From contig CAXXXD010000002.1 in the NCBI GenBank assembly GCA_963663385.2, forward strand, positions 480,001 to 544,000: DNA of 64,000 bases, written 5' to 3'. Position numbers and translations under genes: made by a program. The notes under the pieces are model-generated. The model had not been told where the DNA came from. It saw only the letters and a list, made by a program, of their open reading frames with translations, and did not search any database. Source of the stretch: Oceanispirochaeta sp. (lineage in GTDB: Bacteria; Spirochaetota; Spirochaetia; DSM-2461). Shown here one piece after another: positions 17,413 through 25,623 of this stretch; position 1 is the first letter of the stretch; the number at the start of each line of letters is the position of its first letter.

Positions 17413-20379
17413 ATGTCCTCATCAATATCCTGCCCAGATACATTCTCACTCATTTCTACAGATGACCTGGATGAATACCGCGGCAAAGGTTATCTTTTTG
17501 AACATATAAAAACAGGTTGTCAGATCTATCATGTCCATAATGACGATGAGGAGAATCTGTTCTCCTTCAATTTCCGCACGCCCCCCGCAGACAGTACGGG
17601 GGTCGCTCATATCCTGGAGCATTCCGTGCTCTGCGGATCCCGGAATTTCCCTGTGAAGGATCCTTTTCTATCCATGATGAAGGGGAGTGTCAATACCTTT
17701 CTGAATGCCATGACCTATCCGGATAAAACCCTCTATCCTTCTGCCAGTGTTCTGGAGAAGGACTATTTCAATCTGATGCATGTATACGGAGACGCAGTTT
17801 TCTTTCCTCTGTTAAAGAAGGAGGTTTTCCGTCAGGAGGGACATCGCCTGGAACGGGATGAGAAGGGTAAACTCCGCCGGGTGGGTATTGTCTATAATGA
17901 GATGAAGGGAAACTACTCCTCTCAGGAGGGGATTGCTTCGGAGTGGTCCATCCGCTCCCTTTTTCCCGATAATCCTTATGGTGTGGATTCCGGTGGGGAT
18001 CCCGATTTTATCCCGGCCCTGACCTATGAACAGTTTCTTGAGTTTCATAAGACCTACTATCATCCCTCCAACTGCCGGATTTTCCTTTATGGGAATGTGA
18101 GCCCCCGGAAAAATCTTGAATTTCTGGATGACAGATTCCTGAAGGAGTTTGAAAAACGGGATGTGGATTCCCGGGTTCCCCTTCAGGAAAACTGGACAGC
18201 TCCCCGGGTGTTCGAAACAACCTGGCCGTCCGGCGAGGAGGAAGATGAGGATGGGAAATCTTCCCATTTGCTGAATTGGAAAACTGTTGGACCTGAGGAT
18301 CCCGTCCGCAGTTTGAGTTATTCCATTATGACCGAAATGCTTATGGGAAACAGTGGAGCTCCCCTTCAGAAGATTCTCCATGAATCCGATCTGGGGGATG
18401 ATATCTCTCCGGTCAGCGGGATGGATTTCGATCTGAATGAAGCGGTTTTCTCCATCGGTTTGCGGGGCTCCGATCCGGATAAGAAAGAGGCTTTCAGAGA
18501 GCTGATTTTCTCATCTCTGAAGGAAATTGCAGAAAAAGGGTTTCCGGAAGATCTGAAAGAGAGCTGCATGCGCCTTGTGGAATTCCGGGCCAGAGAGATC
18601 AAGGGGGGGGGACCTTTCGGCCTCCGTCTGCTGAAGAAAGCCCTGAAGGGCTGGAATTATGATCTTCCTCCTGTTCAGACCCTGCGCTTTGATTCTGTCA
18701 TGAAGGAAGTCCGGCGCCGGGCGGAAGAGCCCGGATATTTCGAATCCCTGCTGAAAGAGGGGATTCTGAATAATCCCCACTACTCCCTGGTTACAGTAAA
18801 ACCGGATCCTGAAAGTCGCAATAAACAGGAAGAGGCCCTCCGGAAGGAAATGGCTGCCATTGAGGCATCCTTATCAGAAGAGGATGAGGCTAATCTCAAG
18901 CAGGAAAATGCTGCTCTTAAAACTTTTCAGGAGAAGGTTGATACCCCGGAAGAGCGGCAGACAATCCCCACCCTGAGCAGGGATGATATACCCCGTACCA
19001 TTCAGAAGATCCCCTATCATTTAAGTGATGAGAAGGGAATTAAAGTTCTGAGACAGGGGATTTTCACCAATGGTATCCTCTATTCTGATCTGGCTTTTGA
19101 TCTTTCCGGAGTGGATGAGGATCTCTACCCGTATCTGCCACTTTTCTGCCGCGCCCTGTCCGGAACCGGTCTGCCCGGTATCCCCTATGATGTGGTTACC
19201 CGGGATTTAGCTCTTAAAACCGGCGGTTTCGGGGCGTCTCTGGAAGCGTCCTGTTCCCTCTCCGGTTCCTCCCCCGATCGTTACCTTTATGTACGCCTCA
19301 AAATGCTGGAAGAACAGAGTGCCGAAGCTCTGGAGCTGGCGGGGAAACTGCTTCTGCAGGCGGATTTTGATAATACGGCCCGTCTGGATCAGATTATGAC
19401 GGAGATGCGGAACGATATGAAAGCATCCCTGATCCCCGGAGGGCACTCCTATGTCTCCCTGAGAACAAACCGGGCTCTGTCAAAAGCCTCGGCTCTGGAG
19501 GATGACTGGTTCGGGATCTCCCAGCTTCAGTTCCTGAATGAACTGACGGCAAAAAAAGATAAGCCATTCCTCTTGAAACTTTCATCCCTTATGAAGCAGA
19601 TCCGGAAGGAAGTCTTCAACGCTGAAGGGCTGGTTATAAGCCTGACAATGGATGAATCGGTTATGAACCGCCATAGCCCTGAAATTCTGAACTACTGGCA
19701 GGAGATTTTACCTGTTTCCCCGGAAAAAGGAGAAGGTCTGAATCAGGGGATGCCCCGGATAGACCGGTCTCTATCAGAAGCGGATAATCAGGGAGAAGGT
19801 CTGGCTATCCCGGCTTTGATCGGATTTGTGGGAGCCTCCCTGCGGGGAACCCGTCTGGGGACTGCGGAACACTCGGCCCAGATCCTTCTGAGCCATATGC
19901 TGAAAACAGGTCCTCTCTGGGAGAAAATAAGGATGAAGGGCGGTGCTTACGGGGCATTTTCCTCTCTCTCCGGATTGGAGGAAACCTTTTCGTTTGCCAC
20001 TTACCGGGATCCCCGGATTGAGGATTCTCTGGATGCCTTCAGAGAAAGCCTCGGAGAGTATGTGAATTTTTCAAATCCGGAGGAGCTGGAAAAATCCCTG
20101 ATCAGTGTGATCGGCAAGGAGCTGCGGCCTCTCTCCCCCTCCGAGAAAGGTATGATCTCTTTAAAGCGGTACCTCTACGGGATCAGTGACGAACTGCGTC
20201 AGAAAAAGCGGGATCAGCTTATGAATCTGACTGAATCACAGATTTCTGAAGCGGCGGGGAGCCTGCTCCGGCTCTGGGAGAAGGCTGTCGTCGTTGTTAT
20301 GGCTCACCCCGATCAGCTCGACCGGGCTTCAAAGAGATGGCCCGGTTTAAAAGACCGGAGGATTGACCTTTCGAAGTAG
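17413..20379 (+). CDS. M16C insulinase-family (presequence protease-like) metallopeptidase
   Basis: HILEH..LCGS inverted zinc motif, NAMTYPDKT, IRMKGGAYG. Confidence 0.93.
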   Translation: MSSSISCPDTFSLISTDDLDEYRGKGYLFEHIKTGCQIYHVHNDDEENLFSFNFRTPPADSTGVAHILEHSVLCGSRNFPVKDPFLSMMKGSVNTFLNAMTYPDKTLYPSASVLEKDYFNLMHVYGDAVFFPLLKKEVFRQEGHRLERDEKGKLRRVGIVYNEMKGNYSSQEGIASEWSIRSLFPDNPYGVDSGGDPDFIPALTYEQFLEFHKTYYHPSNCRIFLYGNVSPRKNLEFLDDRFLKEFEKRDVDSRVPLQENWTAPRVFETTWPSGEEEDEDGKSSHLLNWKTVGPEDPVRSLSYSIMTEMLMGNSGAPLQKILHESDLGDDISPVSGMDFDLNEAVFSIGLRGSDPDKKEAFRELIFSSLKEIAEKGFPEDLKESCMRLVEFRAREIKGGGPFGLRLLKKALKGWNYDLPPVQTLRFDSVMKEVRRRAEEPGYFESLLKEGILNNPHYSLVTVKPDPESRNKQEEALRKEMAAIEASLSEEDEANLKQENAALKTFQEKVDTPEERQTIPTLSRDDIPRTIQKIPYHLSDEKGIKVLRQGIFTNGILYSDLAFDLSGVDEDLYPYLPLFCRALSGTGLPGIPYDVVTRDLALKTGGFGASLEASCSLSGSSPDRYLYVRLKMLEEQSAEALELAGKLLLQADFDNTARLDQIMTEMRNDMKASLIPGGHSYVSLRTNRALSKASALEDDWFGISQLQFLNELTAKKDKPFLLKLSSLMKQIRKEVFNAEGLVISLTMDESVMNRHSPEILNYWQEILPVSPEKGEGLNQGMPRIDRSLSEADNQGEGLAIPALIGFVGASLRGTRLGTAEHSAQILLSHMLKTGPLWEKIRMKGGAYGAFSSLSGLEETFSFATYRDPRIEDSLDAFRESLGEYVNFSNPEELEKSLISVIGKELRPLSPSEKGMISLKRYLYGISDELRQKKRDQLMNLTESQISEAAGSLLRLWEKAVVVVMAHPDQLDRASKRWPGLKDRRIDLSK

Positions 20380-21604
20380 TTCTGTTCCGTGTAATCAGGG
20401 GGAGCCCTGCCAGCTGCAGAAGCAGCAGAGGCAGGAAGAGGAATACGGTTCTTTCATTCCCCTGGTGAAACCCGGGCAGCAGGTTTATCAGGATCATCCC
20501 GATAAACAGAAGAGCTTGAATCTGCCAGAATCGAACCAGTATTTTTATCCGGCGGGGATTGTTCCTTTTGGGAAAGAGAAAAATCAGCACCAGATAAAAT
20601 GGATGGATAACCATCAGGTTCAGGTTTTCACTGGCCACCTGGTGGTTGGTGAACAGACTGATGAAGAAGGTCAGCCCTCCTGTTACGGAGAAAACTGTCA
20701 GGAACAGGGTCAGGAGTATTCGGCAGGTGTTTCCGGGGCCGTTTTTCCGTGACAGGGCTCCCGCCTGCAGAAGCAGAAGACATATACCGCTTATCAGGCC
20801 GTAAACCAGAGCCATTTTTATATTGGAAGGGGCGGTATCGGGTACGGCTTCCCGTCCTTCGGCTTTAACCCTGTATTCCGTATTCCGCACCAGAGCTTCC
20901 GTTCCGTTCTCTGTCTCTATGGTCAGTTTGCCAACCTGAATCATCAGTTCATCCGGCAGGAACATGGTATCCCAAACCGTTATATCCCTGTCTATTGTCC
21001 GCCCCTGAAGAAAGGAGAGAAGCCAGTCGGCCCACCAGCTGTGGCTGCTGTACCGGCGGAAACTCTCCCGGAAACTGGTTCCGGCCGACATCATGGTTGC
21101 TTCTTTCAGCTGCCCTCCTGTTGCTGTATCGATAAGATCCCTGATGCGGGTGGAACAGTTATCCAGGTAATGATGGTAGAGGTAGGTATTATTGCCGGGA
21201 GAAACCTTCCATTCCAGATACTGAGCCATATCTGCAATGGCTCTCTGGGACAGGTTGAGGGCCTGAATGGTTACATCCCTGTTTTCGTTTGCTATGTAAT
21301 TGAGATAGGCACGGGCTGAGACTCCCACTGAGGAGTATATAAGTCTTCCCATGGCAAAATTTCTGTAAAAATGGTCTGACTTGAAAGAAAAATTCCCGAA
21401 GTCATAGAACCGTGCTTTGCTGTTTGCCGTATATTCCAGAATCAAACCCGTATGTCCAAACCATATATAAAGTGGATCCCCCGGGCCAACGGTCACAAGG
21501 TAGCAATTCCAGGTCCCCTCCGGGGAATCTGCATTGGACTGTGTCGAAAGGGGCATTATAAGAATGAAAAGAATAACGGGGATAAGGATTTTTTTTTGAT
21601 ACAA
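20297..21604 (-). CDS. DUF4105/Lnb-like membrane protein (putative lipoprotein N-acyltransferase)
   Basis: GPG..Y..FGHT, YDFGNF, YHHYLDNCSTRIRD, FLP motifs plus C-terminal TM helices. Confidence 0.8.
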   Translation of the reverse strand: MYQKKILIPVILFILIMPLSTQSNADSPEGTWNCYLVTVGPGDPLYIWFGHTGLILEYTANSKARFYDFGNFSFKSDHFYRNFAMGRLIYSSVGVSARAYLNYIANENRDVTIQALNLSQRAIADMAQYLEWKVSPGNNTYLYHHYLDNCSTRIRDLIDTATGGQLKEATMMSAGTSFRESFRRYSSHSWWADWLLSFLQGRTIDRDITVWDTMFLPDELMIQVGKLTIETENGTEALVRNTEYRVKAEGREAVPDTAPSNIKMALVYGLISGICLLLLQAGALSRKNGPGNTCRILLTLFLTVFSVTGGLTFFISLFTNHQVASENLNLMVIHPFYLVLIFLFPKRNNPRRIKILVRFWQIQALLFIGMILINLLPGFHQGNERTVFLFLPLLLLQLAGLPLITRNRTTSKGQSSGLLNRAISLKPGRADRGEP

Positions 21605-21753
21605 AAAATACCTCCATGTAGTAAATAGCCCAAAATACGGGATAATATTAATCGATGACGGTTAATTTTTCTACCCTATTGATTTTTTCTATTTATTTCT
21701 TATAAAGAATTGTGATAGAATGGGCCTCAACAAATAGGCATAAGGAGCAATTT

Positions 21754-21939
21754 ATGGCTGAAAAAGAAACCCTGGTAGTATCCTCCAAGGTTAAAAACTA
21801 CATCAAGACAACTGGCGATCTGAAATGTTCTGCCAAAGTTATTGATGTTCTGTCAGACAAAATCCGTGAGATGTGTGACGCCGCAATCGAAAATGCAAAA
21901 AATGATAAAAGAAAAACAGTACAGGAAAAAGATTTCTAA
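21754..21939 (+). CDS. Bacterial histone-fold protein (61 aa)
   Basis: MAEKETLVVSSKVKNYIK...S..VIDVLS..I...C..AIENAKNDKRKTVQEKDF; RKTV---D histone-fold signature; SD AAGGAG; monocistronic. Confidence 0.88.
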   Translation: MAEKETLVVSSKVKNYIKTTGDLKCSAKVIDVLSDKIREMCDAAIENAKNDKRKTVQEKDF

Positions 21940-21969: not shown

Positions 21970-22011
21970 AAAAAACCGCTTTGCCGTACCGGGCAGAGCG
22001 GTTTTTTTTTT
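21970..22011 (+). terminator. Intrinsic terminator after the histone gene
   Basis: AAAAACCGCTTTGCC-loop-GGCAGAGCGGTTTTT hairpin with a long T run. Confidence 0.85.
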
Positions 22012-22153: not shown

Positions 22154-24291
22154 ATGAGTCAGAAAATCAGCGCATCCGTCAGAAGAAAGGATGCAATAGA
22201 TAAAGCCGCCGGAACGATGGAGTACCTGGCGGATCAATTCCCCGTTTCTCCTCTTCACGGGCGTTTTTTTTATTCAACTGTTGCCAGGGGAAAGATAAAA
22301 TCCGTGGATCTGCCGGATCTGCCCGAGGGATACCGTATTTTCGGTGCCGAAGATATACCCGGAAAAAACGGTATACAGATGATCCAGGATGACTGGCCTG
22401 TTTTTGCGGATAAAGAGGTTCGGTATATCGGACAGGTGATTTTTCTGATTGTGGGGCCGGATAAAGCCGAAATCCTGAAAATCCGGGATGCCATACATGT
22501 GGAATACGAAGAGGAGCCACCCTGTTATACCCTGGAGGATTCTGAAGCTCAGCTGGGCGGAACCCAGCATGGGGATGATAATGTTTTTACCCGCTATGAA
22601 ATAAATCACGGCGATGCTGAAAGTATGTTCGCCAAAGCGGACCGTATCCTTGAAAACGATTACTTTACGGGTTATCAGGAGCACGTCTACCTTGAACCTC
22701 AGAGCCTTTTTGCCCACTGGGAGGATGATACGCTTATAGTTCATGCCTCCGCTCAATGCCCTTTCTATATCAGGCACAGTATGACCGGTGCCCTGGGAAT
22801 GGAAGAAGATAAAATCCGGATTATTCAGACCCCTACAGGTGGTGCCTTCGGAGGAAAAGAGCATTTCCCCGATGTCCTGGCCTGTCCCCTTGGGGTCGCC
22901 GTTTATCACCTGAAACAGCCTGTTTCCCTGATCCTCGACAGGAAAGAGGACCTGGCGTATTCCATCAAACGTCATCCCAGTGCCGTCCATATCCGGACAG
23001 CACTGGATAAGGACGGAAAGATCCTTGCAATGGATATTGATCAGCGCCTGGATGGCGGAGCTTATGAAAGCTGTTCCATGGTTGTACTGCAGCGGGCTGT
23101 TTTTCACGCTGCAATGTTTACAATTTCCCCCATGTTCATGTACTGGGAAGGGCTTTCTGTACCAATAAAGTCCCCTCAGATGCGTTCCGGGGATTCGGGG
23201 CTCCTCAGGCTATTTTTGCCATGGAAAGCCATATGAACTTTCTGGCTTTCGAGCTGGGGATGGACCCCATGGACATCAGGGAGCCATACCTGCTGGCCCA
23301 GGGAGACAGTACTATCACAGACGGCCGGATTCATGAAACGGTTATCCTCCCCGAGCTGATTGAGCGTGTCAGGAAAATCTCCGGTTATCAGGAAAAAATG
23401 ACTGCCTATAAAACAATACCCTGGAAAGGGATAGGCTTGTCCCTGTTTATGCATGGATGCGGTTTTACCGGCAGCGGGGAGCAGGATATTATTAAGGCCC
23501 GTGTCAAGGTTTTGAAAACAGCGGACGACAGGATTGAGATTTCCGCCTCCAATGTTGAAATGGGGCAGGGACTGACCACTACCTTTTGTAAAATCGCTTC
23601 GGAAACTCTCGGGATTCCCCTTGATCAGGTTCAGTATATGATACCCGATACGGGAGCTGTCCCGGATTCGGGTCCCACAGTTGCTTCCCGTTCCATTACC
23701 ATTGTCGGATACCTTATTGAAAAGGCCTGTGAAAAACTGAAAAAACAGTGGATGCCGGGAAAAGAACAGACTGTCTTTCATGACTATGTCCCTCCTGAAA
23801 ATGCCGTTCCCTGGGATAATGACGCCCTTACCGGGGATGCTTATCCTGCCTACAGCTGGGGGGCAAATGTTGTTGAGCTTGAAGTGGATCCCATCACATT
23901 TGAAATTGAAACAAAGGGAATCTGGGGCGCTTACGATGTTGGGGTTCCTATTGATCGCCGGATTGTGGAAGGACAGATACAGGGTGGTATGATTCAGGCA
24001 CTCGGTTACAGTAATCTGGAAAAGCTGGAGGTTAAGAACGGCCGCTTCCGCCAGGCTACCCTGGCGGATTATATGATTCCCACCAGTAAGGATTTTCCTT
24101 CCATGAAGTGTGAGATTCTGGATAATCCCTACGACGGCGGTCCTTTCGGCGCCAAAGGGGTAGGGGAAATGGTATTTAACGGCGGCGCTCCCGCTTTTAC
24201 CGCAGCAGTCTGCCAGGCCGTGGATGCGGAAATTGATGAAATCCCGGTTCTTCCGGAAACACTGATGGAGTTGAAAGATGAAGGAAAATAA
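22154..24291 (+). pseudogene. Xanthine dehydrogenase family Mo-binding subunit split by a 1-nt frameshift near 23100-23110
   Basis: ORF 22154-23236 has QEHVYLEP, GGAFGGK; the other frame from 23110 reads CNVYNFPHV...AFRGFGAPQAIFAMESH and continues to GAKGVGE. Confidence 0.85.
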
Positions 24292-24757
24292 TATTGAGTT
24301 TCGATTGAATGGAAAAAATACGGAATACGATGGGTCTCCCCTGAAGCGTCTTCTGGATGTGCTGAGGGAGGATTATGAGCTGACAGGTCCTAAAGAGGGC
24401 TGCGGTGAAGGGGAATGCGGAGCCTGCAGTGTCATCATGGACGGTAAAATGGTCAACAGCTGTATGGTCCCCATGGGTAGTGTTATGGGGAGAGATATTG
24501 TAACCATCGAAGCATTCAGTCAAACAGACCGGGGAAAGTGCATTGTTGAGGCTTTTGCCGATGCAGGCGCCGTTCAGTGCGGTTTCTGTACGCCCGGTAT
24601 GGTCATCGCCAGTGAAATGATCCTTCAAAAGAATGCCGATCCCGGTGTGGCTGAGATCCGTGAGGGACTGTCGGGCAATCTCTGCCGCTGTACCGGTTAC
24701 GATCTGATAGTGGAAGCTGTCAAACTGGCAGCGGAAAGGGGGAAGGGGTTATGGTAA
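24278..24757 (+). CDS. (2Fe-2S)-binding subunit, XDH/CoxS family
   Basis: GCGEGECGAC, QCGFC, NLCRCTGY. Confidence 0.95.
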   Translation: MKENNIEFRLNGKNTEYDGSPLKRLLDVLREDYELTGPKEGCGEGECGACSVIMDGKMVNSCMVPMGSVMGRDIVTIEAFSQTDRGKCIVEAFADAGAVQCGFCTPGMVIASEMILQKNADPGVAEIREGLSGNLCRCTGYDLIVEAVKLAAERGKGLW

Positions 24758-25623
24758 GCTATTTTTATCCTGATGATCTGAAGGAAGCCCTTGAAATCCG
24801 GAAGGAGAATTCTGTTCTTCCCCTGGCGGGCGGAACGGATCTTATGGTCCGGTATGAAAACTGGAGCAGCCTGCCTCCCGACTTTCCCGGGGATGTCCTT
24901 GGAATTTCACACCTGAAGGAGTTGAAGTATATCCGCGAAGATCAGGATTTTCTGCTTATCGGCGCCGGGATGACTCTGAACGATATCCTTGAGTATAAGG
25001 GGATCCCCGATCTGCTCAGGAAAGGAATCGGAGAAATCGCCGCCCCTGCCGTTCGGAACCTGGCCACCCTTGCGGGTAATATCGCCAACTCATCTCCTGC
25101 CGCGGACTCTCTGCCTCCCCTTATTGTAATGGATGCAGTTCTCAACCTTGTCTCTGTCAAAGGAGAAAGAACAGTCCCGGTCAGGGATTTTATTACGGGG
25201 CCCGGCAAGAACAGCCTGCGGGATGATGAGCTGATCGAGTCCATCCGTATTCCCCTGGATTTTATTAAAGAAGAAAGCAGCGGGAAGGGATTTTACCGCA
25301 AAGTGGGAACCCGGAAAGCCAATGCGCTTTCCAAACTCTCCTACTGCGGCTGGGCTTCAATCGAAGGTTATATGATAAAGGATATCAGGATGGCCGCCGG
25401 AGCTGTCAGTCCCGTCGTTGTCCGCCTGCCAGAGGAAGAGGATAAATTGAAAGGGTGTAAACTGAGGGAGCTGTCCCGGGAGTGGAGCAAAGTCAGAGGC
25501 GCCTATGAACAGAAGATCACTCCGATCGATGATCAGAGATCTACCGCTTCCTACAGGAAGCGTACAGCCCTTAAGCTCTTCGATTATATGATCTCGGAAC
25601 TATCCGCCTTATCCGTGTCGTAG
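24751..25623 (+). CDS. FAD-binding subunit, XDH/CoxM family
   Basis: AGGTDL, VRNLATLAGN..N.SPAAD. Confidence 0.93.
   Translation: MVSYFYPDDLKEALEIRKENSVLPLAGGTDLMVRYENWSSLPPDFPGDVLGISHLKELKYIREDQDFLLIGAGMTLNDILEYKGIPDLLRKGIGEIAAPAVRNLATLAGNIANSSPAADSLPPLIVMDAVLNLVSVKGERTVPVRDFITGPGKNSLRDDELIESIRIPLDFIKEESSGKGFYRKVGTRKANALSKLSYCGWASIEGYMIKDIRMAAGAVSPVVVRLPEEEDKLKGCKLRELSREWSKVRGAYEQKITPIDDQRSTASYRKRTALKLFDYMISELSALSVS

Follow-up and report, generated by a model that had tools for sequence, protein, structure and literature searches.

A conserved 61-codon gene of Oceanispirochaeta sp. predicted to encode an HBb-type bacterial histone

Which type of histone is encoded by a very short, free-standing gene of a spirochaete, and how would its product be expected to assemble and to act on DNA? 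The question is raised by a reading frame of 61 codons in a stretch of Oceanispirochaeta sp. DNA of 64,000 nucleotides, the whole of which is called the window here. Nucleoid biology has come to include bacterial histones only recently, and those of the dimer kind were first studied in Bdellovibrio. To our knowledge, bench studies cover only two bacterial histones, namely the HBb dimer, with its disputed mode of DNA binding, and the HLp tetramer. The original prediction, made from the letters of the window, had claimed a stand-alone bacterial histone gene. Our overall reading, which we consider likely, is that the gene encodes an HBb-type dimer that bends DNA and acts as a highly expressed nucleoid protein.

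Gene structure and histone fold

The features of the locus are the following:

21754 to 21939, forward strand: coding sequence of 61 codons, filed as an HBb-type, alpha3-truncated ('bacterial dimer') histone
21742 to 21747, forward strand: Shine-Dalgarno sequence AAGGAG, 6 nt 5' of the ATG, read directly
21713 to 21721, forward strand: putative extended -10 element TGnTAGAAT, with TG at 21713-21714 and the hexamer TAGAAT at 21716-21721
21970 to 22011, forward strand: intrinsic terminator, a 16-pair hairpin (21970-22007) with a GC-rich core, then ten T (22002-22011)
20297 to 21604, reverse strand: divergent neighbouring gene for an Lnb_N / 5TMH_Lnb membrane protein (PF13387, 6.2e-19; PF25221, 5.1e-8)

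The frame opens with ATG at 21754 and closes with TAA at 21937-21939, and it encodes a protein of 61 residues, MAEKETLVVSSKVKNYIKTTGDLKCSAKVIDVLSDKIREMCDAAIENAKNDKRKTVQEKDF, which reads MAEKETLVV...AKNDKRKTVQEKDF in short. With a mass of 6.9 kDa, a pI of 8.6 and a net charge of +2 (13 K+R against 11 D+E), the protein is basic, as had been predicted, though just mildly so. A longer, GTG-started frame (21712, 75 aa) was rejected as the gene because the homologues begin at MAEKE and the Shine-Dalgarno sequence serves the ATG. AAGGAG or AGGAG before the ATG is retained in the 19 aligned family loci.

The sequence TG-n-TAGAAT is kept in all 11 genus-level upstream regions (the window and L036-L045) amid diverging sequence, and we regard it as a putative extended -10 promoter; if it acts as such, the transcript would start about 25 nt 5' of the ATG. 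Our scan for consensus promoters and terminators listed neither for the histone gene, and the extended -10 element is absent from it because no -35 hexamer matching at 4 or more of 6 positions is present there. The terminator was assessed by folding: a stretch of 81 nt reached -27.2 kcal/mol (z -4.0), which was equalled by 0 of 200 shuffles. By eye, a GC-rich hairpin with a T-run, unrelated in sequence, follows the stop codon in 17 of the 20 family loci, the terminator being weaker in two and the locus cut off in one. The gene's own Shine-Dalgarno sequence and its strong terminator, both of which had been claimed, were thereby confirmed. Given the gaps of 149 nt upstream and 214 nt downstream and the divergent upstream gene, the histone gene looks monocistronic, and it would be transcribed singly, from the extended -10 promoter to the intrinsic terminator.

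Two differences were seen just 3' of the gene in other sequencing runs. In run X2, the T-run of the terminator is one T shorter (position 22002), and a contig of run X7 has an intergenic insertion of 30 nt behind 22063. Both are strain or assembly variation.

To place the protein among known histones, we compared it with all PDB chains by phmmer. The best match was HBb/Bd0055 (8fvx, 8cmp; E 2.1e-11, residues 5-60), followed by HLp of Leptospira perolatii (9qt0; E 3.1e-9) and HTkC (9f2c, titled 'hypothetical protein'; E 0.0014), and the archaeal nucleosomal histones reached only E 0.12-0.16. Curated family models barely recognise the protein. The Pfam model PF00808 (CBFD_NFYB_HMF) passed marginally (22.4 bits, E 1.5e-4, threshold 21.4) over residues 29-60 only, and gave 21.4 bits in the six-frame search of the genome; the NCBIfam model NF043032 (archaea_histone) gave 26.6 bits, under its curated cut-off of 50. 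DUF1931 (PF09123), which describes two fused histone folds, scored 14.9 bits against the 21.8 needed, the protein being a single 61-residue fold. The original prediction had expected annotation pipelines to leave such a gene as hypothetical; this holds for some relatives, named 'hypothetical protein', and fails for others, named 'NFYB/HAP3 family transcription factor subunit', 'histone-like protein' or 'histone H3/H4'.

The AlphaFold2 model, based on an alignment of 73 sequences (A1) and with a mean pLDDT of 84.2, shows the three-helix histone fold, whose absence would have spoken against a histone. It consists of alpha1 (10-21), L1 (22-26), alpha2 (27-50), L2 (51-57) and a one-turn alpha3 (58-60). 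In alpha3-truncated histones, alpha3 has 3-4 residues and alpha2 falls 4-5 residues short of its length in nucleosomal histones, as described by Schwab et al. 2024 (PMC11390915). The predicted alpha2 has 24 residues, and the model overlays HBb across 56 residues (TM 0.88, rmsd 0.7 A) with the helix lengths of HBb. A Foldseek search of the PDB placed HBb entries at ranks 1-5 (TM 0.85-0.89, rmsd 0.6-1.3 A, 50-52% identity), then HLp (TM 0.83-0.84, 40% identity) and, as a third group, HTkC (TM 0.82-0.83), so that the top nine matches are all alpha3-truncated histones; eukaryotic and archaeal nucleosomal histones came later, with TM 0.5-0.7. The R-K-T-x-x-x-x-D signature that had been pointed out is R53-K54-T55...D60, the RxTxxxxD or RD-clamp motif, with R53...D60 as the clamp pair. 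Since the PDB sequence matches agree with the AlphaFold2 and Foldseek results, we assign the protein to the alpha3-truncated histone fold. The resemblance to Bd0055 and to the Leptospira histone that the original prediction had noted is thus real (overlay TM 0.88 and 0.84, respectively).

Predicted DNA contacts and oligomeric state

HBb of Bdellovibrio bacteriovorus (8FVX, 8CMP, 9EZZ, 9F0E) is the prototype of the 'bacterial dimer'. It is 52% identical to the window's protein across 56 residues and superposes on the model with an rmsd of 0.6-0.7 A. Both proteins have the three alpha1 lysines, an RKT...D loop that carries the RD clamp, an alpha3 of a single turn and, by the model, an alpha2 of matching length. 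Differences are that HBb comes from another phylum, that its chain runs a few residues beyond the aligned D58, whereas the window's protein ends at D60-F61, and that HBb has a T in place of C25, which is typical of the spirochaete clade, and N22 in place of K24.

The HBb residues with the most DNA contacts are N22, R57, S9, T53, T8, S24, K10, K12, K52 and K16 (PMC11317129), and their equivalents here are, in the same order, K24, K59, S11, T55, S10, S26, K12, K14, K54 and K18. Seven of the ten are identical and three are changed (T>S, N>K and R>K). All 129 relatives have the same residue at S11, K12, K14, T55, R53 and D60. S26 is conserved in 126 of them and K54 in 119, and at position 18, the third of the alpha1 lysines, 112 have K and 17 have R. 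HBb is described as contacting the DNA backbone at minor grooves, as binding the genome without sequence preference and as bending DNA by about 84 degrees over 36 bp, a result that draws on TPM, ligase-mediated circularisation and MD (Hu et al. 2024, PMC11317129). Because the DNA-contact residues of HBb are conserved here, we infer by analogy a homodimer that would bind DNA non-specifically and bend it.

In the mechanism that we propose, two chains would interlock by a handshake, with alpha2 lying over alpha2 and with alpha1 and the L1/L2 loops packed across the dyad, to give a homodimer of 13.8 kDa, the dimerisation being predicted. This dimer would grip the DNA backbone through the alpha1 lysines K12, K14 and K18 and through the paired L1-L2 loops (K24, S26, K54, T55 and K59), as in HBb, and the DNA would be bent rather than wrapped.

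The DNA-binding mode of the prototype is disputed between two published accounts. Hocher et al. 2023 (PMC10627809) report for Bd0055, the closest solved relative, an unconventional edge-on, filament-like mode in vitro, and the alpha1 and loop residues involved are kept in the window's protein. It could then be an HBb-type dimer that coats straight DNA edge-on as a nucleohistone filament, without bending it. The sequence does not discriminate between filament and bending, but bending is what Hu et al. 2024 (PMC11317129) report for the same Bdellovibrio protein, and we regard the filament as unlikely.

Concerning the oligomeric state, Schwab et al. 2024 (PMC11390915) describe two main groups of alpha3-truncated histones. 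In their account, bacterial FtF tetramers are found mainly in Spirochaetota (Leptospira), Planctomycetota, Bacteriovoracia and Myxococcota, and dimer histones keep RKTxxxD and three alpha1 lysines without the dimer-dimer residues R48 and N52; the 'bacterial dimer' category rests there on sequence clustering, with K11, K13 and K17 as the lysines of its logo. In crystals, the HLp tetramer sets R49, S52 and N53 against F63, T61 and R55 (Hu et al. 2025, PMC12701072). The equivalents in our phmmer alignment are N47, N50, D51, F61, K59 and R53, and HBb has S, A and D at the positions of R49, S52 and N53. Of the residues that form hydrogen bonds in the FtF tetramer (R49, N53 and R55), the window's protein has the R55 equivalent R53 alone, and both it and HBb are without the FtF tetramer residues. 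The residues at positions 47, 50, 51 and 59 were compared among four sets of relatives:

Leptospira-like loci, 10 rows: R-S-N-T in 10 of 10
The window's own family, 20 rows: R-S-N-T in 0 of 20
Other Spirochaetota classes, 19 rows: R-S-N-T in 0 of 19
Loci from genome_contigs, 80 rows, a biased sample, fetched by a pattern that presupposes RKTV: R47 in 2, N51 in 0

Neither R47 nor N51 was found in any of the 20 own-family sequences. A quick maximum-likelihood tree of 107 distinct sequences, with 47 of its 104 inner branches unresolved, split off the Leptospira-like clade on a branch of 2.9 changes per column (SH-aLRT 100) and placed the window's protein among sequences of Spirochaetia, Treponematales, Myxococcota and Bdellovibrionota; only the Leptospira-like split was used, the finer order being unresolved at 62 columns. 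Because of the HBb match, the absence of the tetramer residues and this split, the protein is filed, from its sequence, as an HBb-type 'bacterial dimer' and not as the Leptospira tetramer type.

We then considered a structure prediction with four copies of the chain. It scored 0.84, against 0.00 for the best of three controls; such a score is reached by 20 of 30 proteins solved as one-chain pairs and by 1 of 23 solved single chains, in a calibration that used two copies and their own alignments, so that these counts are only rough here. The runs agree in at least 85% of the contacts, and the partner pLDDT is at least 85. Confident contacts were listed only between copies 3 and 4, by a program that differs from that of Schwab et al., and residues that it did not name count as 'uncertain'. 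The interface of copies 3 and 4 is made of the handshake surfaces, that is residues 5-9, alpha1, L1, alpha2 and L2. As HBb dimers have already been solved, the four-copy pass may mirror likeness to them.

The absence of the R49 and N53 equivalents together with the four-copy prediction makes a dimer quite likely, in a call that relies on two published determinant residues. Assembly would halt at the dimer because the HLp dimer-dimer contact residues are absent. The chain ends with D60-F61, right after the DF motif, just as the original prediction had it. The question of oligomerisation that it attached to this ending is answered in part, as the four-copy prediction speaks for one dimer and makes no ruling on a larger assembly.

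An FtF tetramer like that of HLp, in which two dimers join into a torus with about 60 bp of DNA wrapped around it, appears quite improbable to us. It would fit the phylum, which is that of Leptospira, the ...DF ending, the HLp match, and two of the six HLp interface residues, R53 and F61, which are present. However, the determinants R49 and N53 are replaced by N47 and D51, and are seen in 0 of 20 sequences of the own family against 10 of 10 Leptospira-like loci; identity is 52% to HBb against 40% to HLp; the long branch of the tree parts the protein from the Leptospira-like clade; and the four-copy prediction lists no confident dimer-dimer contact, which is a weak point as it had no positive control.

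The bacterial FtF tetrameric histones themselves, HLp of L. perolatii and LA_2458 of L. interrogans (9QT0-2), share with the window's protein a similar length, the alpha3-truncated fold and the RD clamp, but the identity is just 40-47%. In addition, Leptospira is reported to be without HU, whereas this genome has four PF00216 matches, and the Leptospira histone gene is described in a neighbourhood of SMC, methionine aminopeptidase and DUF350 genes (PMC12701072), whereas an Lnb-like membrane-protein gene is found here. HTkC of Thermococcus kodakarensis (9F2C), an archaeal FtF histone, is also alpha3-truncated, and differs in being a tetramer and archaeal and in its identity of 26-27%. HMfB, HPhA and HHoB have the histone fold and RxTxxxxD (E 0.12-0.16, TM 0.60-0.70), but they are described with a full-length alpha3, a longer alpha2, four-helix-bundle tetramers and hypernucleosomes (PMC11390915, PMC12701072), features that are absent here.

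A redox pair of C25 and C41, both of which are conserved in the spirochaete clade, was considered and dropped, since no 25-41 pair occurs among the low-error contacts. In the predicted dimer, C41 packs on residues 13, 16 and 17 of alpha1 of the partner.

Conservation, codon usage and coexisting HU/IHF-type genes

The distribution that the original prediction had proposed to survey was obtained with the protein (P0001) as query at E <= 0.001, and 'not found' means by this single-protein query. The search recovered 145 homologues. The genome itself has one copy of the histone gene. All 38 genomes of the window's order, here equal to one family with six genera, gave exactly one match each, even though they include MAGs that are just 71-80% complete. 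In the class sample, 89 of 401 genomes were positive, namely the 38 of the family and 51 of 363 others, and with the same query none was found in several well-sampled families (0/38, 0/37 and 0/17). The phylum sample gave 93 matches in 401 genomes, mostly in the Leptospira-like family (72/75). In all 19 pairwise comparisons with family orthologues, pN/pS was 0.013-0.11, with 0.44-0.97 synonymous differences per site, and the gene is under strong purifying selection.

Codon adaptation (CAI) was calculated with a reference of 28 Pfam-confirmed genes for ribosomal proteins, EF-Tu and RpoA, from the rpsL-to-rplQ cluster:

Histone gene: 0.793
28 reference genes: median 0.712, maximum 0.788
3985 long background ORFs: 99th percentile 0.722, all under the histone gene
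Four HU/IHF-like genes: 0.60-0.68

Random background windows of 60 codons reach the CAI of the histone gene in 0.31% of cases. The codon usage of this 61-codon gene suggests that it is probably very highly expressed. The original prediction spoke of a probable abundant nucleoid protein; the support for this is indirect and comes from the codon adaptation and from the conserved DNA-contact residues. Contigs of the RNA run X1 (rhizosphere metatranscriptome, 0.07 of sampled words) lie on 20909-21120 and 23520-23691, in neighbouring genes, and, being contigs, are silent on the expression of the histone gene either way.

The proposed role would be that of a general nucleoid protein, whose gene probably ranks with the most highly expressed ones of the cell and which would work beside HU/IHF-type proteins; Bdellovibrio has such proteins as well (PMC11390915). 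With four HU/IHF-like (PF00216) genes in this genome, the main nucleoid protein could be one other than the histone. HU/IHF resembles it in the proposed job, that of an abundant, small, non-specific DNA-bending dimer (PMC11317129), but has an unrelated fold, and the four such genes have a lower CAI. Two of the four PF00216 matches are in tandem, 17 nt apart, outside the window (G000:C4:608920-609469, reverse strand). The frame around the downstream match of this pair stays open over 415 aa. This may point to an HU-like protein that is fused or extended, or it may be no more than a long open frame.

A bolder reading, which we hold as a tentative idea, is that the HBb-type histone and not HU is the dominant chromatin protein of the window's family of free-living spirochaetes, possibly with a novel DNA assembly. 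It draws on a CAI above those of all the ribosomal-protein genes tested, on the single copy in 38 of 38 genomes and on a sequence that is almost frozen while synonymous sites are saturated. The DNA assembly might differ from that of the Bdellovibrio dimer as well as from that of the Leptospira tetramer. If this were true, there would be two independent ways of building chromatin from histones within one phylum, one of which coexists with HU.

The name given to several NCBI relatives and the Pfam family that was matched, CBFD_NFYB_HMF, would fit a sequence-specific subunit of an NF-Y/HAP3-kind transcription factor in place of a general nucleoid protein. We consider this very improbable. The genome has one histone-fold gene only, and hence no heterodimer partner; the 61 residues are a minimal fold and nothing more; HBb and HLp, the best matches, bind non-specifically; and a codon adaptation over that of ribosomal-protein genes is atypical for a regulator. 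Finally, a chance ORF or a non-functional remnant, for which one might cite the very short frame and the near- or sub-threshold scores of curated models, is already refuted by the conservation data, with the gene present in 38 of 38 family genomes, low pN/pS at nearly saturated synonymous sites and a conserved Shine-Dalgarno sequence, promoter element and terminator, and by a fold predicted with confidence.

Relation to reported histones and neighbouring genes

The favoured HBb-type dimer adds a sound member to a known type and no categorically new one, because Schwab et al. 2024 (PMC11390915) had already described the 'bacterial dimer' category in the class Spirochaetia. Our full-text literature search found no bench study of a histone of this class among the papers that it covered, and the supplementary lists of Schwab et al. 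may contain this sequence. The useful additions are universality within the family, codon adaptation at the top of the genome and coexistence with HU. Throughout a whole spirochaete family, the HBb type is a core gene present in one copy; it has the strongest codon adaptation in its own genome, and it stands there beside four HU/IHF-like genes. As the Leptospira tetramer type occurs in this phylum too, a member of the genus grown in culture would be a convenient second system for the study of dimer-type DNA organisation and of job-sharing with HU.

Among the best 150 cluster representatives, about 34 matched the histone query in two stretches. The six sequences that were fetched (P0121-P0126) include tandem HBb-type doublets, for example of 126-149 aa, whose units show the pattern ...LVV.SK.K...GRKTVM.RDF twice, and one protein of 216 aa has a Cys-rich N-terminal region followed by two histone folds. 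By their sequence, we read the tandem doublets as natural 'pseudodimers' of the bacterial-dimer histone type.

In every one of the 19 family loci, a homologue of the upstream Lnb-like gene is found no more than 1.5 kb from the histone gene; in other Spirochaetota classes, this holds for 0 of 29 loci. Its protein is 34-68% identical across the same family loci. A functional link between the two genes was considered and dropped: because the synteny is not seen in those other classes, we read it as inherited gene order and not as a functional unit. The 3' end of the Lnb-like gene overlaps by about 80 nt the 3' end of a convergent gene (17413-20379, forward strand) that encodes a PreP-like M16C metallopeptidase of 988 aa (M16C_assoc, Peptidase_M16_C and PreP_C).

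Downstream of the histone gene, two forward-strand ORFs adjoin, 22154-23236 (Ald_Xan_dh_C and MoCoBD_1) and 23221-24291 (MoCoBD_2). They look like one molybdopterin subunit of the xanthine-dehydrogenase type split by a frameshift of 1 nt. The second frame is open back to 23068, and a contig of run X2 has an extra C behind 23111 that would bring both halves into one frame; the frameshift is probably an assembly indel and not the mark of a pseudogene. The genes for the 2Fe-2S (24278-24757) and FAD-binding (24751-25623) subunits lie downstream of the molybdopterin subunit.
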